Shown here: positions 991 through 59,738 of the stretch, one piece after another
Numbering within the stretch: position 1 is the stretch's first letter
Layout of the letters: every line of letters begins with the position of its first letter
Assembly: GCA_027007025.1 (NCBI GenBank)
Contig: JALTFL010000001.1
Coordinates: forward strand, 248 to 64,247
Source: Nanobdellati archaeon
GTDB lineage: Archaea; Nanobdellota; Nanobdellia; CSSed11-243R1
DNA: 64,000 bases
Direction of reading: 5' to 3'
Notes under the pieces: model-generated
Told to the model about the DNA's origin: nothing
Seen by the model: the letters and a program-made list of their open reading frames with translations, nothing else
The model's database searches: none
Made by a program: the position numbers and the translations under genes

Positions 991-1894
991 CCAAGAAAAA
1001 TGCCTGTGTATTGTACTTGAACGGAACAACCCTTCCGCACTTCGAGAGAAACTGACTGTGTTTCTGGCCGAAAAATGAAACCATGCCTTTGTCTATGTAT
1101 TTGCCTATTTTCAATGGAAGCAGCTTGAATCCAAGCTCGTTGACTGCAAATTCCACCACTTCCTCATTTTCCTCAGGAGCGGTAGAACAGGTTGAGTAAA
1201 CCAAAATCCCGCCTTTTTTCAATAAGTTGTAAGCTGACTTGACAAGAGATTTCTGCAGTTTTTGAAACCTCGCATAGTCCTCCTTTTTTATCTTCTTTCT
1301 AAGCTCTGGATTTTTTGCCATGGTTCCGTCGGAGGAGCACGGCGCGTCAAGAAGGATTTTATCAAATTGTACGCCTATTTTTTGAAGGTTCCGCGAATCT
1401 GCGTTCAGGACAATCACATTTTGTGCGCCCATCCTTTCAATATTATTCTTCAATGAATCCAAGCGCTCTTTGTTTGAATCGACAGCCACAATCGTTCCCT
1501 TGTTGTTCATCAGCTGGGAAAGATGTGTTGTCTTTCCTCCCGGCGACGCCGCCATGTCCAAAACCAAATTATTCTGGCTCGGAGAAAGTTCTATTGGCGG
1601 AAGGGTTGACGCTGGGTCCAAGACATAAAAGTAGCCCATTAAGTATTCCACTGTTGTCGAGATGGGCTTAGGCTCCCTCATCAGGAAAAAAATGTAATTG
1701 CTCCACGGGACTTTTGAAAGAACATATCCTTTTGCTCTCAGCCTGCTCAAGCACCTGTTGACTCCCACTTTTGTGGTGTTTATCCTTATCGCCTTTGTAG
1801 GTTTCCTTGAATAAGCGGCAATTACTTTATTGAAATTGCTACCGAACAAATTCTTGAGCCGCTCTAGAAAGAAGTTTGGATAATTACTGCGCAT
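971..1894 (-). CDS. NOL1/NOP2/Sun-family RNA cytosine-C5 methyltransferase
   Basis: SAM motif LDMAASPGGKTTHL and catalytic DAPCSSDGT/TCS motifs. Confidence 0.85.
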   Translation of the reverse strand: MRSNYPNFFLERLKNLFGSNFNKVIAAYSRKPTKAIRINTTKVGVNRCLSRLRAKGYVLSKVPWSNYIFFLMREPKPISTTVEYLMGYFYVLDPASTLPPIELSPSQNNLVLDMAASPGGKTTHLSQLMNNKGTIVAVDSNKERLDSLKNNIERMGAQNVIVLNADSRNLQKIGVQFDKILLDAPCSSDGTMAKNPELRKKIKKEDYARFQKLQKSLVKSAYNLLKKGGILVYSTCSTAPEENEEVVEFAVNELGFKLLPLKIGKYIDKGMVSFFGQKHSQFLSKCGRVVPFKYNTQAFFLAKLVKV

Positions 1895-3131
1895 TTTTGA
1901 TACCCTTCTTAATTAGTGCCTTGACTATCCTCTTGACGTCGGTTTCCCTGCGCTTGACATCCGCCACCAGGTTTATCCCGTCAATGTAAACTTTTTTCCA
2001 CTTCGAAACAAAAATGTCGAAATGTTCCTTCGGCACCCATACCGGCGGACCGTAGTGCTTTTTCATTTTTGAAAGTTTAAGCGTGCTCAGCTCGAAGTAA
2101 ACCTTGACTGACTTCCCATCGCTTAAATAACCGTAATCATAAACATCTATATCTTCCCTCTCAATCGAAGAGTTAATACGCTTCAAAATTTTGTTCAGCT
2201 TGGCGAAGAAGATATCTTCCTTTTGGGAATCAATTTTTATTGTTTCAGCCACGAAAAGCGTTCCCCTCTTTTTGCTGCGCTCCTTCAAGTCGGCTATTGA
2301 AATTTTCTTCTTCCTGAACGCCGACAAAGACGGCTTCTTCCTGAACATCCTAAGAGCCAAAACCAAATTGGCAAAAGTTGTGTAGTTAAGCGAAGCGCTT
2401 GCGTTCCTGGACTTCATCACAGGGTCTATGAGCACTATTGGAGAGCTAATTTTCGGCTTTGACAACTGCCTTTTGGCGTCGTAAAAACTTTTATAGTGAT
2501 TTTCAATGTCAATGAAAACCGGTGGCTTCAGCTTGCAAGATTGATTAACCAAGTTCTTGAAAGAGCCGAAATGAATCATAAGCAGTTCGCTCACATATCC
2601 TGAAATTCCTGAAATGTGTGTTTCAGCCCCATAAACATTGTGCGCCTTCGCGAACATCTTGAACAGCCTTATCTCGTCCGCCAATTTCGGATTGTGGGAT
2701 ATTTTGTTCTTAATATAATTCACGTGGAAAATTGAAGCGTCCATGCTATTCTTCGCATCGCTTGGGGAGTTCACTTTCATAACAGGTATGATTTCAAGAT
2801 TGCACCCATTGAACTTAAGCTTGCAGTAATTTCTGCTTCCGTGCATAATCTCGCATCTGCCGAAAGCCCTTTTGACAACACCGACAAGCAGGTTTCCTAT
2901 CTCCTCATCCTTGTATCCTTTAAATCTCACAAACAAGTCAACGTCATAGTCTCCCTTTATCCACGTGCCCTTAGCGATGCTTCCGCCGACGAAAACTTCG
3001 GCGTTGATTCCCATCTTGGAAAGCTGAGAAGTCAAGAGAGATTTGGAAAGATTTATAATCGACTCCACTTTAGCTATCTCTGATTTTGATGGAGTTATCC
3101 TTTTCACTACCTTTTTGAGTATGGAATCCAT
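1884..3131 (-). CDS. cca: archaeal class I CCA-adding tRNA nucleotidyltransferase
   Basis: GSIAKGTWIKGDYDVDLFV nucleotidyltransferase motif, 415 aa as archaeal CCA enzymes. Confidence 0.85.
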   Translation of the reverse strand: MDSILKKVVKRITPSKSEIAKVESIINLSKSLLTSQLSKMGINAEVFVGGSIAKGTWIKGDYDVDLFVRFKGYKDEEIGNLLVGVVKRAFGRCEIMHGSRNYCKLKFNGCNLEIIPVMKVNSPSDAKNSMDASIFHVNYIKNKISHNPKLADEIRLFKMFAKAHNVYGAETHISGISGYVSELLMIHFGSFKNLVNQSCKLKPPVFIDIENHYKSFYDAKRQLSKPKISSPIVLIDPVMKSRNASASLNYTTFANLVLALRMFRKKPSLSAFRKKKISIADLKERSKKRGTLFVAETIKIDSQKEDIFFAKLNKILKRINSSIEREDIDVYDYGYLSDGKSVKVYFELSTLKLSKMKKHYGPPVWVPKEHFDIFVSKWKKVYIDGINLVADVKRRETDVKRIVKALIKKGIKNAQ

Positions 3132-3173: not shown

Positions 3174-5915
3174 ATGACGTTCGAAAACCTGCATCCAAAA
3201 ATACGGGAATGGCTTGACAAACAGGGATACTTAGAAAGCACGCTACCCCAGAGGATGGCAATTCCAAATATAACAAAAGGAAAGGACATACTAATAATTG
3301 CTCCTACCGGACACGGGAAGACTCTCGCAGCAGTCCTACCGATATTTGACATGCTCCTCAAAGACAAAGACAAAAAGGGGATTCGGTTTCTTTACATAAC
3401 TCCGCTGAAAAGCCTAAACAGGGACATACTTGACAGGATAATAAAACTCGCGAGTTATATCGGACTGGATGTCGATTTGAGGCACGGAGACACCACAAAA
3501 AAAGAGAGAGCGCAGCAGCTTGCGGACCCCGCGGATGTGCTCATATCAACTCCCGAAACCCTCCAGGCAATTTTGATTGGGAAAAGATTCAGGGAACTTC
3601 TCAGGAACGTTGAGTATGTTGTCGTTGACGAGATTCATGAACTTTGCGAAAACAAAAGAGGAACACAGCTTTCGCTTGCCCTAGAAAGACTTGAGAGTCT
3701 GCGAGGCAAAAAATTCCAGAGGATAGGACTGTCCGCAACGGTGGGAGACCCAAAAAAAATCGCCAAGTTCCTGACAAGCAATGAGTGTGAGATAATAGAC
3801 GCCCGTGCCGAAAAGAAATACGAATTCAATGTTGACTATCCTAGGCCGTCAGCGGAAGACTTCGCTCTCGCGAGGGAGATAAGCACCACCCCCAACGTGG
3901 CGTACTGCCTGAGAAAAATTGATAGGATGGTTGAGGAAAGCAGGTCGACAATTGTCTTTGTAAACACAAGAGAGACGGCGGAAGGAATAGGCGCGAAATT
4001 CAGGATGTGGAAACCTGACGCAAAAATCGCTGTACATCATTCATCCCTATCTAAAGGTGTGCGGCTCGATGTAGAGCAGAAATTCAAGAACGGGGAACTC
4101 AAGGCGATAATCTCGACCTCCTCACTGGAGCTTGGAATTGATGTCGGAAGCGTTGATTTAGTCATTCAATATGGCTCGCCCCGCCAGGCGACAAAACTAA
4201 TACAGCGCGTGGGAAGAAGCGGGCACGGAGTCGGGAGGATTTCAAAGGGAGAAATAATATGCAACTCAATCGACGACTACCTTGAAGCCCTTGCTGTTGT
4301 CAAAAAAATCGAAGACGGCTGGCTCGAGGAGCCGACAATTCCAGAAAAGCCGTACGACGTTCTCTCGCACCAGATTGTCGGAATTTGCATGGATTTCCAA
4401 AACGAGAGCAGGACTCCAACAAGAGATGAAATTTACAAAATAGTAACAAAATCATACCCATACAGGAAATTGTCAAGGGAAGAATTGGATTCCATGATTG
4501 AATTAATGAAAGACATCCACCTTATAGGCGAAAAGGATGAAGGGCTGTTCAGGACGAGAAAGGGTATGATGTACTATTTCGAAAACCTTTCTATGATTCC
4601 CCACGAAAGAGACTACAAGGTATTCGCATCTGACTTGAACAAGGTAATTGGAATTCTCCACCAGGGATTCGTAGCTGAGCACATAAAGCACGGGGCACAG
4701 TTCATCATGAAAGGCGAAACCTGGCGCGTTGTTGATGTAGAGGAAGACAAAGTAAATGTGGTGTCAAGCGAGAGCGGAGAGGGAGCAGTCCCGAGCTGGG
4801 AAGGAGAATTGATACCAGTTCCCATGGAAATAGCAAAACTCGCAGGAGATTTGCGAGAAAAATTCGCCCTCGGGGAGCTGAAAAAACAAAAGGATGATTT
4901 CGTGATTTCCACAAGCAAGAGGATGTTCATAGAATCCTATGAAGATTACACGATTGTCCATTCCTGTTTCGGAAGCAAGGTTAACCAGACACTCTCAAAG
5001 GCAATTGGTGCAATGATAACATCCAAAATTGGCTCCTCAATCGGCGTTCAGAACGACGCTTATAGATTGCTTTTCAAGATGCCGTTGATAGTCGGGCAGG
5101 AGCAGATAGTCGAAGCAATGAACGAGCTTCAGCCAGAATGGATTGACGATATAATCAAAAAGTCTATGAAGAACACCTCGATGTTCCTTTATCGGTTTTA
5201 CCACGTGGCGAAAAGATTTGGCATAGTCGACAAAAACGCGGAGTTCTCACAGTATATCCTATCGCGACTGACGACTGTCTACCAAAACACATTCGTGTAT
5301 GAAGAGGCAATGAAGGAACTGCTTAGAGAAAAGCTCGACACGAAAAGCGCGAGGGACATTCTGGAAAAAATAAAAAGCGGAAAAATTGAAGTTATAAACT
5401 CCCCGAATTATGAGATTTCCCCTCTTGGAGTCGAAGGGCTGAGATACAGGACTTCACTCATGAAACCAAAGGGAAAGATAAAAGAAATTTATAATCTTGT
5501 CAAGGAAAGGCTGAAAAACAGGAAGTTCTGGTTCGGATGCCTCTCGTGCGGGAATACAATCGGCGTTTATTCCGTGAAAAATGTTCCAGAGAATTTGAAG
5601 TGTCCAAAATGCGGAGCTAAGCTAATAGGGTTTGTGCCATATAAGGAAAGTGAAATAGCCAAGAAGATACTCAGAAAATATACCAACAAGCAGAAGTTAA
5701 ACGAGGAGGAAGAAAAATTCATAAAAAAATTCAGCGAAACCGCCGAGATGTTCATCAATTATGGGAAGTCTGCGGTTTTCGTGCTTGCGGGCTACGGAAT
5801 AGGGCCGAAAGTCGGTAGAAGAATTCTCAATAGGTATCATAAAAATGAAGATGACTTGGTTAAAGACATAATAAAAGAAGAAAAAAGATTCATAGAAACG
5901 AGAATTTTCTGGTAA
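3174..5915 (+). CDS. Lhr-like SF2 ATP-dependent helicase with C-terminal zinc ribbon
   Basis: Walker A TGHGKT, DEIHEL box, SAT motif, C-terminal CxxC..CxxC; 913 aa. Confidence 0.75.
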   Translation: MTFENLHPKIREWLDKQGYLESTLPQRMAIPNITKGKDILIIAPTGHGKTLAAVLPIFDMLLKDKDKKGIRFLYITPLKSLNRDILDRIIKLASYIGLDVDLRHGDTTKKERAQQLADPADVLISTPETLQAILIGKRFRELLRNVEYVVVDEIHELCENKRGTQLSLALERLESLRGKKFQRIGLSATVGDPKKIAKFLTSNECEIIDARAEKKYEFNVDYPRPSAEDFALAREISTTPNVAYCLRKIDRMVEESRSTIVFVNTRETAEGIGAKFRMWKPDAKIAVHHSSLSKGVRLDVEQKFKNGELKAIISTSSLELGIDVGSVDLVIQYGSPRQATKLIQRVGRSGHGVGRISKGEIICNSIDDYLEALAVVKKIEDGWLEEPTIPEKPYDVLSHQIVGICMDFQNESRTPTRDEIYKIVTKSYPYRKLSREELDSMIELMKDIHLIGEKDEGLFRTRKGMMYYFENLSMIPHERDYKVFASDLNKVIGILHQGFVAEHIKHGAQFIMKGETWRVVDVEEDKVNVVSSESGEGAVPSWEGELIPVPMEIAKLAGDLREKFALGELKKQKDDFVISTSKRMFIESYEDYTIVHSCFGSKVNQTLSKAIGAMITSKIGSSIGVQNDAYRLLFKMPLIVGQEQIVEAMNELQPEWIDDIIKKSMKNTSMFLYRFYHVAKRFGIVDKNAEFSQYILSRLTTVYQNTFVYEEAMKELLREKLDTKSARDILEKIKSGKIEVINSPNYEISPLGVEGLRYRTSLMKPKGKIKEIYNLVKERLKNRKFWFGCLSCGNTIGVYSVKNVPENLKCPKCGAKLIGFVPYKESEIAKKILRKYTNKQKLNEEEEKFIKKFSETAEMFINYGKSAVFVLAGYGIGPKVGRRILNRYHKNEDDLVKDIIKEEKRFIETRIFW

Positions 5916-5920
5916 CCCCC

Positions 5921-6030
5921 TTTTATGAAAGCACGTACGGAAAAATATAAGTTTTTTCTCTTAGTGCAGTTTCTCTTTTCTAAAGAGAAAGTGCTTTCTT
6001 TAGTGCAGCTTTCTTCTTAAGAAAGGTACT
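5921..6030. repeat. cluster of degenerate CTTTCTY..RAGAAAG hairpins plus GCACGTACGGAAAAA motif (terminator-like, same family as tRNA-intron core)
   Basis: between convergent helicase and TyrRS 3' ends; repeated tttctcttttctaaagagaaag / tttcttcttaagaaagg hairpins and T6 tract. Confidence 0.5.
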
Positions 6031-13894: not shown

Positions 13895-15964
13895 TTACTT
13901 TTTCTTACCCCAATTTTCTTTTGTCTTGCATTTCGGGTCAAGACACATTGTAAATGGGCGCTTTCCCTTTCTTATGACCTTAACGATTGGCGTATGGCAA
14001 TAAGGACAAATTTTACCAGTATTGATTATCTTAGCCCCGCCAGGAAGCGGATAAATATTGTTACATTTCGGATAATTAGTGCACCCCACAAACTTCTTTT
14101 TTGTTTTAGGAGAATATAAAATCTTTAACTGCCCAGTCTTGCACTTTGGACATGTCCCGAGCAAACTTTGTTCTTCCTGTGTGTCAAGAATCGCTTTTTC
14201 TATCTTCGGCCCGATTTTTTTCTCATTTTCCTTAAATTCTTTTGATATCTTTTTAATTACCTTAACTGCATCTTTTATGACTTTCTCGCGCTTTATTTTC
14301 CCTTTCTCTACTTTCTCCATTTCATTCTCGAATTCCCTAGTGAGGTTTTCCGATGTTAAGTCCGGAACATTTTCAGCAAGAGCTTTCCCGACAGCCATGC
14401 CCAACTTTGTAACTTTTATACTTTTGTCTTCAATATACCCCCTATCATAAAGGGTCTGTAATATTGACGCCCTGGTTGCCTTTGTGCCAAGATTAACCTT
14501 TTCGAGCTCCTTAACAATTGAACCTTGTGAGTATCTGCTTGGGGGTTGTGTCTCCTTTTCAACAAGCTCAATTTTTTTGACCTTAAAATTGTCACCCTTT
14601 TCAATTTTTGGAAATTCTGCCTCTTCAAGCTTTGAGTATGACCCATAATAATTCATCCAATTCTTCTCCAATGTCTTTGAGCCCGTCGCCACAAATTCTT
14701 CCTTGCCTATGTCAAAAACAACTTTTGTGGATTCTCGTATTGCAGGTTCTCCAAATACTGCGAGAAATCTTCTGACTATTAAATCATAAAGCTTTTTTTC
14801 ATCTGCACGCAGAGTGGAAATATCTGGCACTTCTTTTGTCGGGTAAATAGCAGGGTGCGCGGGGTCATCCTTTTTTCCTTCTTTCGGGACAAGTTCTTTT
14901 TTTGAAAGAAGTTCTTTAGCAATTTTCTCATATTTTTTAATCTTAGCAAGATTTTTCAAAATAGAGTTATAACCTATTTGTTTCGGAAGCTTCTGAGAGG
15001 ATGTTCTCGGGTATGAGATATATCCTTTTGTGTATAAATTTTGAGCAATGTCAGATGTTCGCTTTGGAGAATACCCAAAATACCTGTATGCCTCCGTTTG
15101 GAGAGATGTCAAGTCAAACGGATTAGGTGGGTCTTTTTTTGTTTTAGTTCTTTTCATCAGCGTGACTACAGCGTCTTCCCTGTCAGCATTTTCATAAGCA
15201 GAGTCAACTTCTCTCTTCTTCCAAAACTTTGTCTTTTTGTGATGAGCAACAACCATGGGTTTTGTTTTTATCTCCGCGTAAAGTTCCCAATATGGCTTCG
15301 GCTTGAACGCAGCGATTTCCTTTTCGCGCTTTATCAAAAAGTAAAGCATCGGTGTCTGGACTCTTCCGGCAGACAAAAGGTAATGATGAAGTTTTTTCCC
15401 ATGATGTTTTATTGACAATGTGAGTGCCCTTGAAACATTTACCCCCCAAAGAAAATCAAGAGAGTGCCTTGTGAGTCCAGATTCTACTCTCCCAAAATCG
15501 AGATGCTTTTGTATTTTCTCAAATGAATTGATTAAATCTTCTTTTGTCAATGTGGAAAATTTCATTCTCTTTGCGTCTTTCTTATTGAACAAAAATCTAA
15601 GAATGTTGTAGCCTATCACGCTTCCTTCCTCATCAAAATCTGTTGCAACTATAAAATCTTTGACACCCTTTGATGCTTCCTTGAAGGTATCATAATATTT
15701 TTTTGTGTACTCTGCTTTTTTATTCGCTACAAAAACCGGCACCCATTCCATATCAAATATTGGATATTCCCAACCTTTTTTTGTGTCTTTTAACGCGAAA
15801 ATATGACCAACTGCCGGGACTGCTACATAAGTGTGTTTTTTTATGTTAAACTCGTAATAATCTACTCCTTCACTTGACTTTTTTACTGCCAACTTTCCCT
15901 GTGAAAGAGCAGTAGCTATCTTTTTTGCCGCTGTTGGTTTTTCACATATGATTAAAGTTTTCAT
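13895..15964 (-). CDS. topA: DNA topoisomerase type IA with C-terminal zinc ribbons
   Basis: Toprim MKTLIICEKP, catalytic Tyr region, multiple C4 zinc fingers at C-terminus. Confidence 0.9.
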   Translation of the reverse strand: MKTLIICEKPTAAKKIATALSQGKLAVKKSSEGVDYYEFNIKKHTYVAVPAVGHIFALKDTKKGWEYPIFDMEWVPVFVANKKAEYTKKYYDTFKEASKGVKDFIVATDFDEEGSVIGYNILRFLFNKKDAKRMKFSTLTKEDLINSFEKIQKHLDFGRVESGLTRHSLDFLWGVNVSRALTLSIKHHGKKLHHYLLSAGRVQTPMLYFLIKREKEIAAFKPKPYWELYAEIKTKPMVVAHHKKTKFWKKREVDSAYENADREDAVVTLMKRTKTKKDPPNPFDLTSLQTEAYRYFGYSPKRTSDIAQNLYTKGYISYPRTSSQKLPKQIGYNSILKNLAKIKKYEKIAKELLSKKELVPKEGKKDDPAHPAIYPTKEVPDISTLRADEKKLYDLIVRRFLAVFGEPAIRESTKVVFDIGKEEFVATGSKTLEKNWMNYYGSYSKLEEAEFPKIEKGDNFKVKKIELVEKETQPPSRYSQGSIVKELEKVNLGTKATRASILQTLYDRGYIEDKSIKVTKLGMAVGKALAENVPDLTSENLTREFENEMEKVEKGKIKREKVIKDAVKVIKKISKEFKENEKKIGPKIEKAILDTQEEQSLLGTCPKCKTGQLKILYSPKTKKKFVGCTNYPKCNNIYPLPGGAKIINTGKICPYCHTPIVKVIRKGKRPFTMCLDPKCKTKENWGKKK

Positions 15965-16515
15965 TTGAACCTGAACTCCTTTATTACCCCATAAGTTGGA
16001 CCCTGCTTCGAGAGCTTGCTTTCAAAAAGTGACATCGATAATGCTGTAAATGAACCAAATTCTTTTTTGTAATTCTCTCTTATCTTGTCAAGGAACATCT
16101 CTTTATTTCTTGGATTCCTTATTCTTGCTAAAGTTACGTGTGGTGTGAACCTGCGCTCGTCTTTTGGTATGCCAAGCTCCTCAAGTTTAGCCTCAACTAT
16201 AGTATGTAATTGTCTCAACCCTTCTGATTGGGCGCCCGCCCACAATACTCTAACAAATTCTTCACTTGGAAAGATGCCAACTCCCTGAACATCTACCTCA
16301 AAAAGACGAGTGGATTTAACTAAATCATTCAACACATCCAAAATATCCTTTAATTTCTTATCAGAGATATTACCAAAAAATTTTATGTTAATATGAAAAT
16401 TTTCTTCTTCAACAAATTTCGCGTCAATATCTAATTTTTTAATTTCATTTTGGAAACGAGACAGCTTCTGCGAGATTTCATCAGGAATTTTAATTGCTAA
16501 AAAAACTCTTTTCAA
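15961..16515 (-). CDS. thpR: 2H phosphoesterase LigT/ThpR (RNA 2',3'-cyclic phosphodiesterase)
   Basis: two HxT/S motifs (HINIKF, HVTLAR); TTG start overlapping stop of upstream S8 gene (TTGA). Confidence 0.8.
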   Translation of the reverse strand: MKRVFLAIKIPDEISQKLSRFQNEIKKLDIDAKFVEEENFHINIKFFGNISDKKLKDILDVLNDLVKSTRLFEVDVQGVGIFPSEEFVRVLWAGAQSEGLRQLHTIVEAKLEELGIPKDERRFTPHVTLARIRNPRNKEMFLDKIRENYKKEFGSFTALSMSLFESKLSKQGPTYGVIKEFRFK

Positions 16516-25170: not shown

Positions 25171-25211
25171 AAAAATTCTCTTTGGTACAGCTTTCTCCCT
25201 TTAAGAGAAAG
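25171..25211 (-). terminator. hairpin CTTTCTCTTAAAGGGAGAAAG plus U6 downstream of proS
   Basis: minus-strand hairpin followed by UUUUUU; same CTTTCT/AGAAAG hairpin family. Confidence 0.45.
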
Positions 25212-25214
25212 ATG

Positions 25215-26714
25215 TTAATATTGACGAGCTACCCAGACAATTTCCTTTGCTGGCTTTCCGCAAACTGCGCATTTCTTGCCTTTTGCTGCCTTCCTTGAAG
25301 TTTCAACGCTCTCCTCGACGGACTTTTCGCCGTTGGCAAAAAGCTGAACTCCCCTAACCTTGATTGTTTCTTCCTTAAGCTTTTCAACGCATTTCTGTGA
25401 GTTGCAAAATGGGATTTCAACAAGATGGATTCCTGCATTTATCTCTTTCAAAATACCTTCAAAACTGTCTGCCTTCGCGCGCTTGAAGTTTTCCTCAGCC
25501 TTCGCGAACATAAGCTCGGTAATTTCCTCAAACTTCTTTTCAATGGTTTTTGAGCTCAAATCACTAATTGGAATGAATTCTTTGTTCCTGTCAAAGCGCC
25601 TTACCAAAACAACTTGGTTTTTCTCGACATCTTTAGGACCTATCTCAATCCTGATTGGAACACCCTTCATTTCCCACTCGTTGAATTTCCATCCCGGCGA
25701 ATAGTTGTCGCGCGAATCAATTTTTATCCTAAATTTTTTCAGCTTTGACTTAACGCTGTTGGCGAGCCTGAGCGCCGCTTCCTTTTCGTCGTCCTTGTAA
25801 TAAATTGGGACAATCACTATTTGTATCGGAGCTACTTTTGGCGGCAATACTAATCCGTTGTCGTCGCCGTGAATCGCCGCAAGCATCCCGAGTATTTTGC
25901 TTACACCCATTCCGAAAGAAGTCTGGTGGCAGAACTGCTTTTTGTTGTTCTTGTCAACATATGTAACGTCAAACGGCTTCGAGAAATTTAGCCCGAGATT
26001 GTGAGTCGTGCCTATCTGCGATATCCTGCCGTCAGGAAGTGGAGAATCATAAGCACATGTATATTCCGCCCCCGCGAACTTGTCCCACTCCGGGCGCTTG
26101 AAAAGCATGAAAGGTATTGCCAAATTGTCCTCGACAACTTTCTTGAAAATTGTCATGTCTTCCTTCACCTGCTTGTCTGCGTCATCGTTTGAAACCTGAG
26201 CGGTGTGAGACTCTATCCAAAAGAACTCTGCCGTCCTCAACAACGGGAAAATCGCATTTGTCCTTTCGGCGCGGAATGACGGGCGCGTTTCAAAAACCTT
26301 GAAAGGTAAGTCTTTGTAGGTTTGAATCCAATAGCTGAAGTAGGGATACATAACAGCTTCGCCTGTCGGGCGGAGAACTTTTGGTATTTCCAAATCCTTG
26401 CCGCCATGCCCCTTAGTTATCATAAAAACTTCCGGTGCGAAACCTGTCGCGTGCTCCTTCTCCTTTTCAAGAAGTGTGACCGGAATTGCGGTCGGAGTCC
26501 TGATTGGAGAATGTTCCTTTTCGATAAGCTCGCTTTCAAAAAGGCGTTCTACCTCCCTCAAAATTTTTGAGCCCCATGGGGGGTATCCATAAAATCCTCT
26601 GGAATTCTCCAGGCGCTTGTCCGCGAGCCCGCATTTCAAAACTACCTGTTCGTACCACTCGCTGAAATTTTTCTTGCCGACAGTAATTCCCTGTAACTTG
26701 TCCTTTGCCATCAA
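25215..26714 (-). CDS. proS: prolyl-tRNA synthetase (archaeal/eukaryotic type)
   Basis: class II core, anticodon-binding domain, C-terminal Zn motif CAVCGKP and terminal Tyr. Confidence 0.9.
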   Translation of the reverse strand: MMAKDKLQGITVGKKNFSEWYEQVVLKCGLADKRLENSRGFYGYPPWGSKILREVERLFESELIEKEHSPIRTPTAIPVTLLEKEKEHATGFAPEVFMITKGHGGKDLEIPKVLRPTGEAVMYPYFSYWIQTYKDLPFKVFETRPSFRAERTNAIFPLLRTAEFFWIESHTAQVSNDDADKQVKEDMTIFKKVVEDNLAIPFMLFKRPEWDKFAGAEYTCAYDSPLPDGRISQIGTTHNLGLNFSKPFDVTYVDKNNKKQFCHQTSFGMGVSKILGMLAAIHGDDNGLVLPPKVAPIQIVIVPIYYKDDEKEAALRLANSVKSKLKKFRIKIDSRDNYSPGWKFNEWEMKGVPIRIEIGPKDVEKNQVVLVRRFDRNKEFIPISDLSSKTIEKKFEEITELMFAKAEENFKRAKADSFEGILKEINAGIHLVEIPFCNSQKCVEKLKEETIKVRGVQLFANGEKSVEESVETSRKAAKGKKCAVCGKPAKEIVWVARQY

Positions 26715-30367: not shown

Positions 30368-30380
30368 AAGAAAAACTATT

Positions 30381-30412
30381 TCTTCCGTGCACGCTTCTTT
30401 CTAAGAAGGGTG
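30381..30412 (-). repeat. extragenic copy of conserved intron-core element, immediately 3' of tRNA, followed by U-tract
   Basis: minus strand reads CACCCTTCTTAGAAAGAAGCGTGCACGGAAGA then TTTTTCTTTT. Confidence 0.7.
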
Positions 30413-30414
30413 TA

Positions 30415-30574
30415 TGGCCCGGCGGAGATTTGAACTCCGGACCTCTGGTTTTCTGAGACCTGAGGTAACCCACAGGCGTCATATAAGACCAGCGCTCCAA
30501 CCAGGCTTCACCCAAACACCACTTCTTCCGTGCACGCTTCTTTTTAAGAAGGGTGCTTGTTAAGCTACCGGGCC
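30415..30574 (-). tRNA. tRNA with two introns; anticodon most likely UAU (Ile), assignment tentative
   Basis: acceptor GGCCCGG/CCGGGCC, D arm GCTT..GAGC, T arm CGGAG-TTCAAAT-CTCCG; D-loop intron 30508-30561 (54 nt, contains element) and anticodon-loop intron 30451-30481 (31 nt); mature 75 nt. Confidence 0.7.
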
Positions 30575-52066: not shown

Positions 52067-53980
52067 GTGATGATAATGAAGAATGGAGACATCCTGAAAC
52101 AAATCAAGGAAGACTTACCTCCCAACGCACAAATCTCTGACGTGTTTTATGAGGGGGCAAACATAGTACTGTACACAAAAAACAGGGATTTCTTTCTTGA
52201 TTCAAAGGAAACAATAAGAAGTATTGTGAACAAAGTTAAGAAAAGGGTAGAGTTAAGGATGGACCCGTCAATGCTCGTTCCTCCGGAGGAAACCCAGGAC
52301 ATCATAAGCAAAATTGTTCCCAAAGAGGCGGGGCTTGGAGAAGTTTGGTTTGATTACAAGCGTTCAATCGCGTTTATAGAAGCTCAAAAGCCAGGACTTG
52401 TCATAGGAAAAGAAGGACAGGTAATGAATGAGATAAAAGAAAAGACGCTTTGGGTTCCAAAGATAAGACGCGCGCCAGTCATAAATTCTGACTTGATTAA
52501 GACAATCAGGTACACATTGTTCCAGAACTCAGAATATCGCAGAGATTTCATGAACAAGATTGGAAAGAAAATTTACATGACAAAATGGGAAAGGGACCCA
52601 TCGTACTGGGTAAGGGTTTCCGTACTTGGAGCCGGAAGGGAAGTCGGAAGAAGCTGCATGCTATTGCAGACGCCGCTTTCAAACGTGCTCTTGGACACAG
52701 GCATAAATGTCGCGTCTCCGGAAAACGCGTTCCCGCACTTTGATGCCCCAGAGTTTGACATTCACAAGATAGACGCAGTTGTGATATCACACGCGCACCT
52801 TGACCATAGTGGTGCAGTGCCGTTGCTTTTCAAGTACGGTTACACAGGACCCGTTTACGCGACTGAGCCGACAAGGGACATCATGACACTGCTTCAATTA
52901 GATTACATTGATGTCATACAAAGGACTGGAAAGAAGCCACAGTATTCAAGCCGCGAGATAAAGGATGTAATCAAAAACACAATCACATTGGATTACGACG
53001 AAGTTACGGATGTAACTGCCGACGTCAGACTTACACTTCACAATGCAGGACACGTTCTCGGAAGTTCGCTTGTCCACTTGAATATTGGAAACGGATATCA
53101 CAACTTTTTGTACACGGGAGACTTCAAGTATGCGAGAACAAAGCTGCTCGAGCCGGCAATGACGAGATTCCAAAGAGTAGAAACACTTATGATGGAATCC
53201 ACATACGGCTCAAAGGAGGATGTCCAGCCATCAAGGGAAGAATGTGAAACTCAACTTATAGATATAATCAAATCTACTATTGACAACAAGGGAAAAGTTT
53301 TGATTCCCGTTCTTGGTGTCGGGCGCGCCCAGGAAGTAATGCTCATAATCGAAGAAGCAATGCGCCAGAAAAAGATTCCTGAAGTCAGCGTTTATGTTGA
53401 CGGTATGGTTTGGGATGTTACCGCAATCCACACTACATATCCTGAGTTCATGAACCGTGATGTCAAAAAACAGATATTTGGGGATGATAATAATCCATTT
53501 GTAGCGAAGTGTTTTGTGCGTGTCGGCTCTCAGGAAGAAAGGGACAAAATAATCAACAGCAGAAAGCCTTGTATAATACTCGCGACATCAGGTATGCTTA
53601 CAGGAGGTTCAAGTGTTTATTACTTCCAGAAGCTGGCTCCTAATAAGAAGAATTCAATTGTCTTTGTTTCATACCAAGCTGAGGGAACCTTAGGTCGAAG
53701 GGTGCAAAGGGGCGAGAAGCAAGTTCCTGTTGAAACGTTTGGGGGAAAAGTCGAGATGGTTGATACCAAGCTTGCGGTGCATTCTGTTGAGGGGCTTTCA
53801 GGGCACTCCGACAGAAACCAATTGATAAACTATGTCAAGCATATGGACCCGAAGCCGAGGAAGGTTATGTTTGTCCATGGGGAAAGCTCGAAGTGCTTGG
53901 ACTTGGCATCCACTATACACAAGCTTTTGAGAGTGGAAACGACAGCTCCTAGGAATTTGGACGCGACAAGGATAAGGTAG
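52067..53980 (+). CDS. aCPSF1 beta-CASP ribonuclease (KH + MBL + beta-CASP)
   Basis: HAHLDHSG metallo-beta-lactamase motif, N-terminal KH domains, 637 aa. Confidence 0.9.
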   Translation: MMIMKNGDILKQIKEDLPPNAQISDVFYEGANIVLYTKNRDFFLDSKETIRSIVNKVKKRVELRMDPSMLVPPEETQDIISKIVPKEAGLGEVWFDYKRSIAFIEAQKPGLVIGKEGQVMNEIKEKTLWVPKIRRAPVINSDLIKTIRYTLFQNSEYRRDFMNKIGKKIYMTKWERDPSYWVRVSVLGAGREVGRSCMLLQTPLSNVLLDTGINVASPENAFPHFDAPEFDIHKIDAVVISHAHLDHSGAVPLLFKYGYTGPVYATEPTRDIMTLLQLDYIDVIQRTGKKPQYSSREIKDVIKNTITLDYDEVTDVTADVRLTLHNAGHVLGSSLVHLNIGNGYHNFLYTGDFKYARTKLLEPAMTRFQRVETLMMESTYGSKEDVQPSREECETQLIDIIKSTIDNKGKVLIPVLGVGRAQEVMLIIEEAMRQKKIPEVSVYVDGMVWDVTAIHTTYPEFMNRDVKKQIFGDDNNPFVAKCFVRVGSQEERDKIINSRKPCIILATSGMLTGGSSVYYFQKLAPNKKNSIVFVSYQAEGTLGRRVQRGEKQVPVETFGGKVEMVDTKLAVHSVEGLSGHSDRNQLINYVKHMDPKPRKVMFVHGESSKCLDLASTIHKLLRVETTAPRNLDATRIR

Positions 53981-56438: not shown

Positions 56439-56707
56439 GGGCGAGCTAGGTGGGCCGTTGGGCGTGGCCTGTCAATCCCAAACCGTCCTTAGGGGAGCCG
56501 AAGCCAGCTTGAGGGTTGTCACATTTTGAGTAAGCTCATGCCGTATCTGCGAAGCCTCGCCCCAAGGGATGTGTTATTCTGTGAACCGTGCGAGGTCCGG
56601 AAGGAAGCAGCACTAAGCGGAGTAGCATATGCTCTTGGGATACGGGGTGGAGAAAAGGTATGGGGACTGCTCCTGGTGCGGCTTCTCGATGGCTGGTGTG
56701 CTCGCCT
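56439..56707 (+). ncRNA. signal recognition particle RNA (7S/SRP RNA)
   Basis: terminal helix GGGCGAGC/GCTCGCCT, universally conserved helix-8 GGTCCGGAAGGAAGCAGC, GC-rich, TATA-like TTTTTAA ~25 nt upstream. Confidence 0.85.
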
Positions 56708-56712
56708 ATTAA

Positions 56713-56747
56713 CTTCTTTTTCCGTGCACGCTTTTTCCAAAAGGGTG
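56713..56747 (-). repeat. inverted copy of conserved intron-core element directly 3' of SRP RNA, followed by T6
   Basis: plus strand cttctttttccgtgcacgctttttccaaaagggtg is reverse complement of CACCC..GCGTGCACGG..AAG consensus. Confidence 0.7.
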
Positions 56748-56794
56748 CTAAGAAAGCTGCACCAAAAGAAACACTTTTTTACATATGTGAAAAC

Positions 56795-57349
56795 TTATTT
56801 AAGAAATTCTTTTATTTTTTCAAGCAAAAATGGAAACTTTGTGTACCCCGCTTTTTCGTTGAAGTGCCCAGCGCCGTGAATTATTATTGGTTTCACATTA
56901 AGTTTTTCCGCGAGTTCATAAGTTTTTTCTAAAGGAATATAAGGGTCGTTGTCAGAACCGATTACAAAAATGTTCTTGCAGTTTTCTTTTATTTTCTTCC
57001 AGTCAAACGGCTTTTCGAAAAAGGTTGAATTGATTTTATCGACTTCGGCGAAACCTAGTGCTCCGAGGAAACCCGCTATTAAAAAAGTAGCTTTGGTTTT
57101 ATACTTCTCTAAAAGATGCAATACAAATGAGGGTCCAATGCTGTGAGCAACAAAAATTGTATTCTCGTCAACATACTTTTCATAATCTTTGAAAACATTT
57201 AGCCAATTTTCTAAGGATTGCCCTTCTGGTGTCGGGAATTTTGGCACAAAGACTTTGCAACCCACCTTCTCGAGTTCTTTCTTCAGCCAAGGAAACCAAT
57301 TTTCCTGCGGATGCCCAAATGCGCCGTGTATGATGAAAACATTTGTCAT
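56795..57349 (-). CDS. alpha/beta-fold serine hydrolase (YdeN/RBBP9-like esterase)
   Basis: 184 aa, nucleophile elbow AHSIGP, HGAGH near C-terminus. Confidence 0.6.
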   Translation of the reverse strand: MTNVFIIHGAFGHPQENWFPWLKKELEKVGCKVFVPKFPTPEGQSLENWLNVFKDYEKYVDENTIFVAHSIGPSFVLHLLEKYKTKATFLIAGFLGALGFAEVDKINSTFFEKPFDWKKIKENCKNIFVIGSDNDPYIPLEKTYELAEKLNVKPIIIHGAGHFNEKAGYTKFPFLLEKIKEFLK

Positions 57350-57477
57350 AATCTCTCTAATAATCTTTGTAGTTATATCTTTATCCTTTTAGAGCTCTTT
57401 TTTTGGTAAATATTTTTCCTTGGAAAAACGTTTGCTGCGAAAGAAATATAAGGGGTTTATTCATTCTATTGGATTAT

Positions 57478-57725
57478 GCCGGGGTCGCCTAGCACCACCC
57501 TTTTCTTAAAAGAAAAGCGTGGACGGAAAAGAAGAGGGTGATGGGTTATCTGGTTATGGCGCTGGCCTGCTAGCACCCTTTCTTAGAAAGAAAGCGTGCA
57601 CGGAAAGAAATTTCCGTGGGTCGTAGTCAGCCAGTTTCCTTCGGGATCCGTGAGTTCGAAAGAGCCTTTCTCTTGCGAAGAGAAACCCTCGGGAAAGAGA
57701 AGCTCCGATTTTCTCACCCCCGGCG
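57478..57725 (+). tRNA. class II tRNA with three introns; anticodon most likely GCU (Ser)
   Basis: acceptor GCCGGGG/CCCCGGC, anticodon stem CTGGC/GCCAG loop CTGCTAG, 15-nt variable arm, T arm GTGAG-TTCGAAA-CTCAC; introns 57493-57549 (D-loop), ~57574-57629 (anticodon loop), 57662-57712 (T-loop); mature 84 nt; TATA-like AAATATAA ~30 nt upstream. Confidence 0.7.
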
Positions 57726-57770
57726 CTTTTTTTAGAAAAATTAATAATCAACATTTTCATTAATATTCAC

Positions 57771-58379
57771 ATGTACATAGAAGAAATAGGAAATAGAAAA
57801 TATTTTGCCGAAGTTATTGCGGATGACCTGCTTAAAAAATCTTTTCTAAAAATTTGGTGGAACAATAACGGCAAAGACATCTCGCTTGAACTTTACCCAG
57901 GGAATGGACTGGAGTATATTGTTGATAACTACACTGAAAGTGAAAGTATTAATGGTGTGTACAAACAAATGTTAAGCTCATTATCCGAAGTAGCAACAGG
58001 CATTAAAACAGGAATTGGGGTGTGGAAAGGCGGAAGGATAAGGTTTTCATACTGGGTTAATGAAGAAGGCATATTCTTTGTTGATGAAAATGAAGATGAA
58101 GTTGAGAAGCTGACGATTAAAGATATTTTGTCGAGACTAAATGGTGTGAAGCCGTTCAATTGGGAATTTGACACGTCGGGCATGAGTTTTATTGAGAAGT
58201 TTGCCTATGTGTTTAGTTCTCTTGACAAGAATCCGTGTCCGTTTATGAACAAGGATAAAATTTGTTTCGCTGATGGAGAACATTGCAATCACTACAGAAA
58301 ATTTGTGTACTATGGGCACACCTGTCCGAGGTACGAAACCGATTTTGAGCTTGAGAAAAAGCTTTTTGGTAAAGTTTAA
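57771..58379 (+). CDS. hypothetical protein with C-terminal Cys/His cluster
   Basis: 202 aa; CPFMNKDKICFADGEHCNHYRKFVYYGHTCPRY possible metal site. Confidence 0.3.
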   Translation: MYIEEIGNRKYFAEVIADDLLKKSFLKIWWNNNGKDISLELYPGNGLEYIVDNYTESESINGVYKQMLSSLSEVATGIKTGIGVWKGGRIRFSYWVNEEGIFFVDENEDEVEKLTIKDILSRLNGVKPFNWEFDTSGMSFIEKFAYVFSSLDKNPCPFMNKDKICFADGEHCNHYRKFVYYGHTCPRYETDFELEKKLFGKV

Positions 58380-58460
58380 TGATTCAGTGTTCCGAATTGT
58401 ATGTGGCGAAATATTTATAACTCTTTAGTCATTACTTTTTTTGAAATAGGGGTGATTGAT

Positions 58461-59084
58461 ATGGATTTTTTAGAAAAAGTAAATGGTATTGATAAATACA
58501 AATTATACACAGGTCCCCTTGAGGATGCCATTCACGCAATTAGAGCTGATGGGAGAACCCCAATGACTATTGAACAAATAGCACGCAAAAGACTTGAAGT
58601 TTATTCGAGTGGAGATGCCAATCATGATAAGGTTTGGTGGTGGAATGAATCACACTTTGGTGTGTATAACGGTGTTGCGTATTTTGAGGATAAGATTAAA
58701 GTTATAGATGGAGACACATTGCTTATGGCTGCTCTTGAGGGGAGAAAAAATGAATATTCCCTTATGATTAGCGAGGAATTGTATCATTCACTTGAAGGCG
58801 AGGAGTTCAAAAAATCAAAATCATACGATAGGAGAGACAATTCTTTCTTAAAAGCATTGTTCGGTGATGTGTTTGATGAGTATAAGAAAGTGGCAGAGGA
58901 TAGGTACATTGGTTTTAGAGGAGATAGATGTGTTTTGCCAACATTTAATGACTGCCTTAAATTTTGGAAGCCTAAAATACCTGAAGTGCGTGGACTAACA
59001 ATATCTGGATTGGTGGATGTATCTACTATTTATACGACATCTCCCCCAGGGGGGAATTTTGTTGGGGAAATAGCAAAAGAGTAA
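58461..59084 (+). CDS. hypothetical protein
   Basis: ATG 58461 preceded by GGGGTGA; 208 aa, no recognised motif. Confidence 0.3.
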   Translation: MDFLEKVNGIDKYKLYTGPLEDAIHAIRADGRTPMTIEQIARKRLEVYSSGDANHDKVWWWNESHFGVYNGVAYFEDKIKVIDGDTLLMAALEGRKNEYSLMISEELYHSLEGEEFKKSKSYDRRDNSFLKALFGDVFDEYKKVAEDRYIGFRGDRCVLPTFNDCLKFWKPKIPEVRGLTISGLVDVSTIYTTSPPGGNFVGEIAKE

Positions 59085-59134
59085 CAATCCCTTCCACAAA
59101 AGTTTAAAAATGATAATCTTACTTTTCTTTTCAT

Positions 59135-59345
59135 GGGCCCGTGGCCTAGTGGCTATGGCGTCCGCTTGACGAAACCCTTTCTTCCAAGAAAGCATTTACG
59201 GAAAGAAGGGTGTTCAAAATGCGGGAGATCCCCGGTTCGAAAGCAGCCTTTCTTTAGGAAAGAAAGCCTGCAGGGAAAGAAATTTCTTTTCCCTCAAGGC
59301 TTTTCTTTTTAAGAAAAGGCTTGCACGAAAGTCCGGGCGGGCCCA
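59135..59345 (+). tRNA. tRNA-Val (GAC) with two introns
   Basis: exons 59135-59172, 59221-59242, 59333-59345 give 73-nt cloverleaf; acceptor GGGCCCG/CGGGCCC, anticodon stem TCCGC/GCGGG loop TTGACGA, T arm CCCGG-TTCGAAA-CCGGG; introns 48 nt (anticodon loop) and 90 nt (T-loop). Confidence 0.8.
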
Positions 59346-59384
59346 TTTCTAAAGTTTTAAATATGTAACTCATTTTAATCTTAT

Positions 59385-59738
59385 ATGGCAAAGAAAAAGA
59401 CAACGAAAAGAAAAACAGCTAAAAGAGCACCAAAGAGAAAAGTCGTGGAATTGAAAAACAAAGCAGCTATGAATACAGTACACTTGGTTTTTGAGATTTT
59501 GGCGGCAGCAGGATTCGCGATTGGGTTAATTCCATTAGGATATCTGTTCTCTATGTGGTGGGTAATACCAATGACGTTGATATCGATGATTATCTCTGTG
59601 ATGTGGAGCAAAAAAACGTTGACTTTAGATGTTGTTACTTTTATAATGAGTCTATTGTCAATAATACCTATATTGGGTTTTGTTGCAAGGGTTATTGGTA
59701 TTATAACAGCTGCAGTAGCGGCTAAAGATTTAATTTAA
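59385..59738 (+). CDS. small membrane protein with Lys/Arg-rich N-terminus
   Basis: 117 aa; MAKKKTTKRKTAKRAPKRK then 3 TM helices. Confidence 0.35.
   Translation: MAKKKTTKRKTAKRAPKRKVVELKNKAAMNTVHLVFEILAAAGFAIGLIPLGYLFSMWWVIPMTLISMIISVMWSKKTLTLDVVTFIMSLLSIIPILGFVARVIGIITAAVAAKDLI

Follow-up and report, generated by a model that had tools for sequence, protein, structure and literature searches.

The stretch analysed here, a 64-kb window from a Nanobdellati archaeon (positions 248 to 64,247 of contig JALTFL010000001.1, assembly GCA_027007025.1), contains three tRNA genes, for tRNA-Ser(GCU), tRNA-Val(GAC) and tRNA-Ile(UAU), each of which is interrupted by two or three insertions, and six of the seven insertions carry copies of one small conserved repeat element. 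The element consists of a hairpin and, downstream of it, a purine tail; the hairpin has a covarying base of 3-4 bp, a conserved C.C mismatch and a polypyrimidine/polypurine stem. We consider it likely that these are functional tRNA genes whose introns are spliced at bulge–helix–bulge (BHB) motifs and are built on a proliferating structured repeat.

Interrupted tRNA genes and their junctions

Neither ARAGORN nor Rfam at the gathering threshold reported a tRNA in the raw window, and the default, intron and relaxed settings of ARAGORN gave nothing useful there, only a mis-framed partial 'His' call. Once the inserts were removed, ARAGORN accepted three genes, all with canonical cloverleaves and none with an encoded CCA.

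57478-57725, plus strand: tRNA-Ser(GCU), class II; precursor 248 nt, mature form 85 nt, three introns (ARAGORN on the spliced product)
59135-59345, plus strand: tRNA-Val(GAC); precursor 211 nt, mature form 73 nt, two introns (ARAGORN on the spliced product)
30574-30415, minus strand: tRNA-Ile(UAU); precursor 160 nt, mature form 76 nt, two introns (called tRNA-Ile(tat) by ARAGORN on the spliced product)

An intron-tolerant scan of the window, relying on closure of the T-arm and acceptor stem, returned the three known loci and no further credible tRNA gene. The initial annotation had described multiple introns in three out of three tRNA genes, and its intron counts (three in tRNA-Ser, two each in tRNA-Val and tRNA-Ile), insert sizes of 31-90 nt and gene coordinates all agree with the present results, as does the lack of any continuous tRNA with other boundaries in the ARAGORN and Rfam output for the raw window. 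It had correctly named tRNA-Val(GAC), while its 'Ser-like' gene can now be specified as tRNA-Ser(GCU) and its unnamed minus-strand gene as tRNA-Ile(UAU). The insertions that it had reported in the D-loop were recovered at about 15/16, with a junction ambiguity of 1-2 nt, whereas those in the T-loop, placed by it at 60/61, actually lie at 59/60, between UUCGAA and U.

For the junctions, splice-site pairs were enumerated and scored for the canonical geometry, in which the 5′ strand comprises an outer helix (h), a 4-bp central helix (H), a 3-nt bulge and an inner helix (h′), the 3′ strand comprises h′, H, a 3-nt bulge and h, and each bulge is cut behind its second nucleotide. All seven junctions conform to a BHB or a relaxed HBh′ motif, as the initial annotation had expected of genuine introns. 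In five of them H has 3-4 of its 4 pairs and the outer helix, of 5-6 bp, is the native anticodon stem or T-stem; the two D-loop junctions (Ser and Ile) follow the relaxed HBh′ pattern, with no outer helix, an H of 4/4 pairs that is rich in G.U, and an inner helix of 7-14 bp. The T-loop introns exploit the palindromic nature of the T-loop, since UUCG pairs with CGAU (Ser) or CGAA (Val) at the 3′ end of the intron and the T-stem serves as outer helix. The introns are given below with the element copies that they contain; bit scores are those of the covariance model (CM) of the element, and folds were calculated as minimum free energy (MFE) structures.

57493-57548, plus strand: Ser intron 1, D-loop about 15/16, 56 nt, HBh′, H = GCCU/GGGU, inner helix 12-14 bp
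57495-57536, plus strand: element copy in Ser intron 1 (CM 52.1 bits; MFE fold)
57573-57628, plus strand: Ser intron 2, 37/38, 56 nt, hBHBh′, H = CUGC/GUAG with 4/4 pairs, h = 6 bp
57573-57613, plus strand: element copy in Ser intron 2 (CM 56.2 bits), joined in the MFE fold by a second hairpin, CACGGAAA/UUUCCGUG
57661-57711, plus strand: Ser intron 3, T-loop 59/60, 51 nt, H = UUCG/CGAU with 3/4 pairs, h = T-stem of 5 bp, h′ = GAGC/GCUC
57662-57704, plus strand: element copy in Ser intron 3 (CM 35.9 bits)
59172-59219, plus strand: Val intron 1, 37/38, 48 nt, H = UUGA/UCAA with 4/4 pairs, h = 5 bp
59172-59211, plus strand: element copy in Val intron 1 (CM); the orthologous intron is present in AUK188
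59242-59331, plus strand: Val intron 2, T-loop 59/60, 90 nt, H = UUCG/CGAA with 4/4 pairs, h = 5 bp
59243-59285 (plus strand) and 59281-59323 (minus strand): element doublet of Val intron 2, tail-to-tail in opposite orientation (CM 52.2 bits on the plus strand, 45.3 bits on the minus strand)
30507-30559, minus strand: Ile intron 1, D-loop about 15/16, 53 nt, HBh′ with a G.U-rich H; an AA repeat lets the junction slide by 1-2 nt
30518-30556, minus strand: element copy in Ile intron 1 (CM 49.7 bits; MFE fold)
30451-30481, minus strand: Ile intron 2, 37/38, 31 nt, H = CUUA/UCAG with 3/4 pairs, h = 5, h′ = 3

The second intron of tRNA-Ile is the sole one without the element, as judged by the absence of a CM match. 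The initial annotation was right in recognizing real, partly non-canonical multi-intron tRNA genes that need a relaxed BHB endonuclease, and its treatment of the inserts as independent introns overlooked that six of the seven share one repeat.

A shared element within stable-RNA genes and beyond

The consensus of the element is N1N2N3N4-C-C-(U/C)n ... (A/G)n-G-C-N4'N3'N2'N1', then N3N4-GG-(purines). Its commonest version reads GCACCC-UUUCUU-loop-AAGAAAG-CGUGC-ACGG-AAAGAA, and in a variant version the base is 3 bp long and the tail is ACC-AAAGAA (...GCUGCACCAAAGAA). The commonest version was used as a pattern to scan one genome per species, which yielded 54 loci that were viewed as 8-kb snippets (numbered with the prefix L below; taxon labels are those of the NCBI records). 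Forty-six copies were aligned and converted into a covariance model (CM, R1), and a search of the window and the 54 related loci, 448 kb altogether, with this model produced 133 copies. Conservation in the part of the sequence that the locus-fetching pattern fixed is partly by construction, a bias of which the additional CM matches are free.

The hairpin is strongly supported by this 133-copy alignment. Its columns are paired in 96.5% of the cells as compared with 37-62% in slid registers, compensatory changes occur in nine of its 11 pairs, and both sides have changed in 207 cells, against 53 +/- 5.5 in shuffles. The basal stem is accordingly found as GCAC/GUGC, CAAC/GUUG, GAAC/GUUC, CAGC/GCUG, CAAG/CUUG and GAAU/AUUC, while the C.C mismatch above it is kept (CC in 106+9+2 of 127 distinct copies) and the apex may be as short as a triloop or contain insertions of about 60 nt. 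Copies in different genes of the window can be very similar: that of the Ser anticodon intron and that of the Val T-loop intron share 93% identity over 29 nt.

The copies within introns have an additional feature, in that the 5′ GCACC(C) possesses a second, distal partner, GG(G)UGC, with which it makes up the h′ helix beside the bulges; solo copies, in trailers and 3′ regions, are devoid of a distal partner for their 5′ strand. In the MFE structures, the D-loop introns form one long helix with the middle looped out, and the Ser anticodon intron forms a junction of the C.C hairpin and the second hairpin CACGGAAA/UUUCCGUG. This 'long' intron form corresponds to an inverted element doublet minus its second hairpin. 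Full inverted doublets are present in the Val T-loop intron, which folds into one long hairpin (MFE, z = -5.9), as well as at L021:7390/7428 and L036:3489/3527, the latter inside a 23S rRNA gene.

Several other identities were considered for the core and set aside. It contains neither the GA/AG tandem of a K-turn nor a UGAUGA/CUGA box that would suggest a C/D-box RNA (by inspection). Kissing or dimerisation through the palindrome GUGCAC is not sustained either, since palindromy is lost in the variants GUUGAC, AUUCAU and GUUUAC, and the palindrome is therefore best seen as a by-product of the basal-stem rule. Rfam 15 identified only the signal recognition particle (SRP) RNA in the window at the gathering threshold; for 57380-59420 at E <= 10 it gave chance-level matches and no tRNA, ribozyme or small-RNA family for the inserts. 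Two matches to the pattern, at 33035 and 34413, are located inside a class I aminoacyl-tRNA synthetase gene and are due to chance. At L019:2040-2120 (minus strand), one D-loop copy is followed by at least four tandem repeats of the tail segment (GAAUGCACGGAAAGAAAAA), which suggests slippage or amplification of the tail unit.

The element is also found outside introns in the window, where the following copies were recognized.

30375-30413, minus strand: solo copy in the 3′ trailer of tRNA-Ile, immediately adjoining the discriminator base, with a U-run behind it (CM 45.8 bits, repeat family D1, MFE hairpin)
56712-56748, minus strand: solo copy 46 nt past the stop codon of a serine-hydrolase gene (56795-57349, minus strand; CM 47.2 bits)
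25173-25215, minus strand: probable variant copy, CUGUACC-AAAGAGAA tail, right after the stop codon of the gene for ProRS (25215-26714, minus strand), followed by U6 (CM 16.5 bits, E = 0.003)
5915-6029, between convergent genes: three probable variant copies (CM 14.8, 10.5 and 16.0 bits)
5915-5950, plus strand: the variant copy of this group after an Lhr-like helicase gene
5969-5990 and 5991-6029, minus strand: the variant copies of this group after a Trp/Tyr-tRNA synthetase gene

The copy in the tRNA-Ile trailer shares 90% identity with the one in the D-loop of this gene. The weak CM scores at 5915-6029 are backed by the hairpin and mirror-tail architecture, as recognized by eye, and each of the variant copies (25173-25215 and 5915-6029) is in sense orientation to the gene ending upstream of it, most of them being followed by oligo-U. 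The solo copy at 56712-56748 abuts, on the opposite strand, the 3′ end of the SRP RNA gene (Pfam, Rfam). This gene (56439-56707, plus strand; RF01857, 121.5 bits) is followed by the reverse complement of the element copy, a partial variant copy and a T-run at about 56773, and a primary SRP RNA transcript that reached this T-run would carry an antisense element.

The 54 loci bear the labels Nanoarchaeota (with many matches in AUK188 and AUK136), Aenigmatarchaeota, Altiarchaeota, Iainarchaeum, Woesearchaeota and Thermoplasmata. One locus binned as Caulobacterales (L047) lacks the hairpin and looks like a chance match; another (L030, on CAYJQU010000019.1, a 2.6-kb contig binned as 'uncultured Gammaproteobacteria bacterium') encodes an archaeal-type tRNA with an element-containing anticodon-loop intron, and is probably mis-binned. 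In tRNA genes of the relatives, copies occupy D-, anticodon- and T-loops as well as T-stems, lie in 5′ leaders or abut the 3′ ends, and copies are also found directly past stop codons and in 16S leaders. Others reside inside 16S rRNA genes (L024:1827-1966, L042:6457-6500 and L051:3203-3571), at several conserved sites which, by sequence context, are near positions 785, 900 and 1070, and the 23S rRNA gene at L036:3489-3569 is interrupted by an inverted pair of elements. The 16S insert between GGAUUAGAU and ACCCCGG has by eye a clean junction, UUAG/CUAA followed by CACC/GGUG. In addition, an archaeal RNase P RNA gene in L036 (1408-1743, minus strand) has a variant copy in antisense orientation (1676-1719, plus strand), either within it or at its 5′ edge. 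In Altiarchaeota (L002:1-260 and L025:2650-2950), 5′ portions of tRNA genes (GGGCCCGUAGCCUAGC...GGGCAC plus 5-6 nt) are arranged in tandem; behind each of them come an element copy and an A-rich stretch before the following 5′ portion begins, and the vicinity contains no 3′ half. Possibly, these are genes for split tRNAs in which the element terminates the 5′ half.

The conservation of the core (CC ... GC-N4-N2-GG) irrespective of the insertion site, and the presence of copies in places that do not call for a BHB, namely tRNA 5′ leaders, 3′ trailers abutting mature ends and 3′ untranslated regions, could hint that an element-specific activity, be it self-cleavage or a dedicated nuclease, removes the inserts or makes the ends in place of the BHB endonuclease. 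We regard this as improbable. The core and the 3′ splice site are separated by anything between about 6 and more than 40 nt while the BHB geometry of the junctions is constant, the anticodon intron of tRNA-Ile is free of the element and must be removed as well, no ribozyme or other Rfam family emerged even at E <= 10, and an element-bearing relative has an ordinary gene for the splicing endonuclease EndA.

Comparison of orthologous genes provides further indications of function. The tRNA-Ser(GCU) gene of AUK188 (L003) has introns at the same three sites and its exons 1 and 2 are identical to those of the window, whereas the variable arm and the T-stem differ in a compensatory manner (GUGAG/CUCAC versus GUGGG/CCCAC for the T-stem); its introns contain a diverged element, with another basal stem or a tail of another family, in which hairpin and mirror tail are kept. 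The anticodon intron of tRNA-Val is common to the window and AUK188, but the second intron of this gene differs in position: 59/60 in the window, where it is a doublet, and 53/54 in AUK188. Orthologues of tRNA-Ile were found in L045, L042 and L051, and the Dive96 copy has an extra T-arm insert that is absent from the window (L051:7609). The shared but diverged introns of AUK188 and the differing insert positions in tRNA-Val and tRNA-Ile imply long-term retention under structural constraint combined with gain, loss or movement. Since orthologous interrupted genes exist in other metagenome-assembled genomes (MAGs), the interruptions are not an assembly artefact; nor is every tRNA gene split, as uninterrupted ones also occur in the related loci (for example L042:4646-4716). 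With 64 kb of the genome in view, the genome-wide maturation regime suggested by the initial annotation is a possibility.

These data bear on a further explanation, namely that the three loci are pseudogenes broken by repeats, the functional tRNAs being encoded elsewhere. Standard tRNA finders do reject the loci, and the inserts do come from a repeat family. This explanation is nevertheless very improbable, given that all tRNA genes in the 64 kb are affected, that their exons are intact, form canonical cloverleaves and are conserved, with a compensatory change in the T-stem, while the introns diverge, that a spliceable junction is kept in every insert, and that the same pattern recurs in many genomes and also affects rRNA genes, of which genomes this small usually have a single copy.

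Predicted splicing, possible mobility and orientation

The maturation of the three genes probably proceeds as follows. In the intron copies, the distal GG(G)UGC would pair with the 5′ GCACC(C) to give the inner helix h′, and a short, site-specific 3′ segment would pair with the last exon nucleotides, thereby creating the 4-bp central helix between two 3-nt bulges. By analogy with established archaeal tRNA biology, an EndA of relaxed specificity would cut both bulges, an RtcB-type ligase would join the exons and circularise the introns, and the archaeal CCA-adding enzyme, whose gene is present in the window (1884-3131, minus strand), would then complete the tRNA. The element would persist in stable-RNA genes because it is spliced out, supplying as it does a ready-made h′ helix. 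The C.C mismatch would tip the choice between the hairpin and h′ toward the latter once the distal strand is transcribed.

A candidate for the endonuclease was encountered in one of the relatives. A tblastn search with an M. jannaschii EndA sequence served as a lead only, and the resulting match in L018 was then confirmed by Pfam and PDB. The element-bearing locus L018 encodes (1074-1625, minus strand) a single-subunit, alpha4-like EndA of 183 aa with both Pfam domains, which matches M. jannaschii 1a79 at E = 2.6e-33 and lies about 500 nt from a tRNA gene with two element-containing introns. It displays a Lys-rich insertion directly before the catalytic His (VKKGPKAPSEH, as compared with IDK----EH in M. 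jannaschii EndA). According to Kaneta et al., the specificity loops L1 and L2 of EndA are near the catalytic histidine, EndAs with extra loops in DPANN go along with a higher number of disrupted tRNA genes, and the tRNA sets predicted for some DPANN members are incomplete (PMC5829648). A link between the L018 insertion and specificity is suggestive only. Among the window genes that handle RNA ends are also a LigT-like 2H phosphoesterase of the 2'-5' RNA ligase family (15961-16515, minus strand) and FttA/aCPSF1 (52067-53980, plus strand), none of them element-specific.

Several points weigh against an interpretation in terms of spliced introns built on a mobile repeat. No gene for EndA or RtcB is found in the 64-kb window (Pfam; tblastn for EndA). 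The D-loop junctions, whose position is uncertain by 1-2 nt, have no outer helix and depend on G.U pairs. The same 5′ nucleotides are claimed by the hairpin and by h′, both of which covary, and either fold may be the one that is cut; more generally, splicing as such, its exact sites and the sequence in which the introns would be removed are predictions. In the 133-copy alignment, G.U wobbles in the stem (12) are not enriched over A.C mismatches (16), which is atypical for a purely RNA-level structure. Structured RNAs usually tolerate G.U far better than A.C, and the lack of enrichment would suit a constraint at the DNA level or a triple helix that requires strictly isomorphic pairs. As to mobility, which we deduce from distribution, similarity of copies and one difference in intron position, Pfam detected no transposase or reverse transcriptase among the window open reading frames (ORFs). 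No consistent target-site duplication was observed, and none at all at the D-loop or anticodon sites; the direct repeats in the T-loop are accounted for by the palindromic UUCGAA that the central helix requires.

Some of these points would fit with the element being a mobile or recombinogenic repeat at the DNA level, similar to bacterial repetitive extragenic palindromic (REP) sequences and REPINs or to miniature inverted-repeat transposable elements (MITEs) and acting, in single-stranded or supercoiled DNA, as a cruciform or as H-DNA, which tRNA and rRNA genes tolerate because the inverted repeat GCACCC...GGGUGC provides a helix that the endonuclease can remove. Homopurine mirror repeats are a classical H-DNA motif, the stem shows no preference for G.U over A.C, copies occur between convergent genes and in inverted doublets, and the intron copies end in inverted repeats. 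Moreover, a review argues that Thermoproteales tRNA introns were gained at the DNA level (PMC4090602). The orientation of the copies is difficult to reconcile with such an origin: 67 copies have a T-arm on their own strand only (sense) as opposed to eight with one only on the opposite strand, a bias not expected from orientation-blind insertion, especially of palindromic forms. Furthermore, orthologous introns persist and covary across species, the solo copies lack terminal inverted repeats, and neither a transposase or RAYT-like gene among the window ORFs nor a consistent target-site duplication lends support. We would give a DNA repeat of this kind perhaps one chance in four, the sense-strand bias favouring a constraint at the RNA level or an RNA-mediated route. 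In a search of IMG/VR, no viral contig contained a copy of the element.

The mirror-repeat tail and relation to known systems

The purine tail obeys a rule of its own. No sequence nearby is its Watson-Crick partner; instead, when both are read 5′ to 3′, each tail position is complementary to the corresponding position of the 5′ pyrimidine strand, so that the tail mirrors the purine strand of the hairpin, as illustrated by CC-UUUC-UU/GG-AAAG-AA, CC-UUUUC-UU/GG-AAAAG-AA, CC-UUC-UU/GG-AAG-AA and CC-UUUCUCUU/GG-AAAGAGAA. Without recourse to an alignment, the first U-run and the first A-run are equal in most copies, and the mean matching run is 5.4, as compared with 3.55 +/- 0.11 when tails are swapped between copies and 0.1-2.5 in shifted registers. 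In the parallel register, columns 9-12 and 97-100 are complementary in 87.6% of cases, against 58-74% when slid; pair counting with crossing brackets gives both-side changes of tail and 5′ strand in 80 cells, against 0-25 when slid, and at column 10/98 alone U/A occurs 49 times and C/G 42 times, with 11 exceptions. If a level is called a canonical triple when the tail base is identical to one member of the Watson-Crick pair (G*G-C, A*A-U, C*G-C, U*A-U), then 93.7% of the Watson-Crick levels are of a canonical type, compared with 79.3 +/- 1.0% for permuted tails, and the difference is larger when only variable levels are considered (88.6% versus 61.9 +/- 2.3%). Part of the covariation of the tail may be inflated by inherited subfamilies.

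Antiparallel Watson-Crick pairing between the tail and the 5′ strand fits some intron copies, in which it gives helices of 12-14 bp, and fails to account for the run-length rule and for the solo copies. To our knowledge, no other base-specific interaction than a triple helix selects mirror repeats. A purine-motif triplex is defined by the order Y-loop-R-linker-R, its third strand being the mirror of the purine strand and antiparallel to it (PMC7583470), and the element, with its order of Y, loop, R, short linker and mirrored R, corresponds to this motif in both strand order and third-strand polarity. The tail rule thus fits a purine-motif triple helix and no Watson-Crick scheme, formation of the triplex itself being a prediction.

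It is tempting to speculate that hairpin and mirror tail together would form an antiparallel Y.R*R RNA triplex of 6-10 levels, a portable cap for tRNA and rRNA introns and for transcript 3′ ends across phyla, although we put this forward tentatively, as a possibility with the odds against it. The element would then be a functional RNA module rather than a selfish repeat, a similarly doubtful proposal, with the rigid cap protecting 3′ ends from exonucleases and, in introns, preventing misfolding with the tRNA body or stabilising the excised intron. Besides the tail statistics (matching run, parallel register and triple types) and the strand order and polarity, the location of solo copies just upstream of oligo-U terminators is consistent with this idea, and a strict Watson-Crick stem without enrichment in wobbles would answer the needs of a triplex. 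On the other hand, no long natural RNA triplex of the purine motif is known and the in vitro evidence for this motif in RNA is mixed, the linker between hairpin and tail is very short unless basal pairs open, some intron copies require those very purines for the Watson-Crick h′ helix, and the covariation is open to the subfamily effect mentioned above. In a weaker version, a triplex in single-stranded or supercoiled DNA may drive the spread of the element.

Natural RNA triplexes known so far are of the pyrimidine motif (U.A-U, parallel), the purine motif being known mainly for DNA. Like the triplexes of the elements for nuclear expression (ENEs) of MALAT1 and PAN and the mirror repeats of H-DNA, the element has a third strand that corresponds, at each level, to a polypurine/polypyrimidine helix, and some of its copies are at transcript 3′ ends; in contrast to the ENEs, its third strand is purine and antiparallel, and its triplex is predicted from sequence.

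Multiple and non-canonical BHB introns in tRNA genes are known from Thermoproteales, Ca. Micrarchaeum ARMAN-2 and Ca. Caldiarchaeum, and a D-loop intron from Methanopyrus kandleri (PMC5829648, PMC3239211). The window genes resemble these in that each carries two or three introns, at sites that include the D-loop, the anticodon loop and the T-arm, with BHB or HBh′ motifs and an apparent reliance on an EndA of broad specificity (PMC5829648, PMC3239211); they differ in that one structured core is shared across genes, positions and phyla and also occurs outside introns, and in that the host is a low-GC archaeon of the DPANN type. The closest parallel is offered by the transposing tRNA introns of Thermoproteales, which, as summarized in later articles, have similar sequences at many positions and are regarded as transposable elements that move by an unknown mechanism (Fujishima 2010, as cited in PMC4090602 and PMC10714607). 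The introns of the window are likewise closely similar between genes, occupy canonical and non-canonical positions, and differ in presence or position between orthologous genes of relatives (Val, Ile). Going by these summaries, the earlier case concerns one crenarchaeal order, whereas the present element is found in MAGs of six labelled lineages; again as far as the summaries describe it, the earlier case does not share the copies in 16S and 23S genes, tRNA leaders and trailers and mRNA 3′ regions, nor the defined architecture of hairpin, C.C mismatch and mirror tail.

With the archaeal BHB introns in the 16S and 23S genes of Thermoproteales, the rRNA inserts have in common a position in conserved rRNA regions and a BHB-compatible junction (L051:3531), and they differ from these in their small size of about 40-60 nt, in the lack of a homing endonuclease gene and in being members of the family that also supplies the tRNA introns. 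REP/REPIN sequences, mobilised by RAYT, and MITEs are similar to the element in being short (35-60 nt) imperfect palindromes with many copies, a 3′ intergenic location and some inverted doublets, but the sense bias, the spliceable copies in stable-RNA genes, a mirror tail that has no REP counterpart, the archaeal host and the lack of a RAYT or transposase among the window ORFs set the element apart. The open-access full-text literature yielded no relevant description of the phenomenon or of the core sequence, though an earlier description may exist elsewhere. Multi-intron and non-canonical tRNA introns, the link with EndA variants in DPANN and the transposing introns of Thermoproteales are thus already known; what is apparently new is a phylum-spanning intron core defined by sequence and structure, with copies in rRNA genes, leaders, trailers and mRNA 3′ regions, inverted doublets and a mirror tail.

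The archaeal origin of the window is evident from the SRP RNA gene (56439-56707, Rfam) and from genes for Cdc6/Orc1, PolB, PolD, eRF1, aIF5A, FttA and the archaeal CCA-adding enzyme (Pfam), and its sequence is also present on contig WALP01000027.1 of NCBI GCA_015522785.1. In most archaea AUA is read by a tRNA with an agmatidine-modified CAU anticodon, and a tRNA-Ile with the anticodon UAU has been reported in Nanoarchaeum equitans and Korarchaeum. The tRNA-Ile of the window and its AUK136 orthologue (L042:2747) have UAU, and AUK188 has the GAU isoacceptor with the same D-loop intron (L045:1010). The UAU anticodon would fit a Nanoarchaeota-like affiliation of the host. Between the tRNA-Ser and tRNA-Val genes (57771-59084, plus strand) lie two ORFs of 202 and 227 aa, without a match in Pfam or PHROG; the AUK188 interval between these tRNA genes contains only one ORF, of 166 aa and by eye unrelated in appearance, which suggests a variable island between conserved tRNA genes.

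The introns have practical consequences for the study of these lineages. Standard finders miss all three tRNA genes of the window, and the CM of the element offers a direct way to locate and unmask hidden interruptions of tRNA and rRNA genes in MAGs. Introns of about 40-60 nt without an ORF in rRNA genes could disturb 16S-based surveys and the design of primers for these organisms. If the hairpin and its mirror tail do fold as predicted, the purine-motif triplex would have no documented precedent among natural RNA structures and, as such, constitute a new class of natural nucleic-acid structures. Finally, a phylum-spanning core that is defined by its sequence and exists both as an intron and as a free-standing copy, with a preferred orientation and with insertions that are partly orthologous and partly non-orthologous between close relatives, bears on how archaeal tRNA introns arise and move, since it makes gain and loss, as well as the choice between DNA insertion and reverse splicing, amenable to testing.

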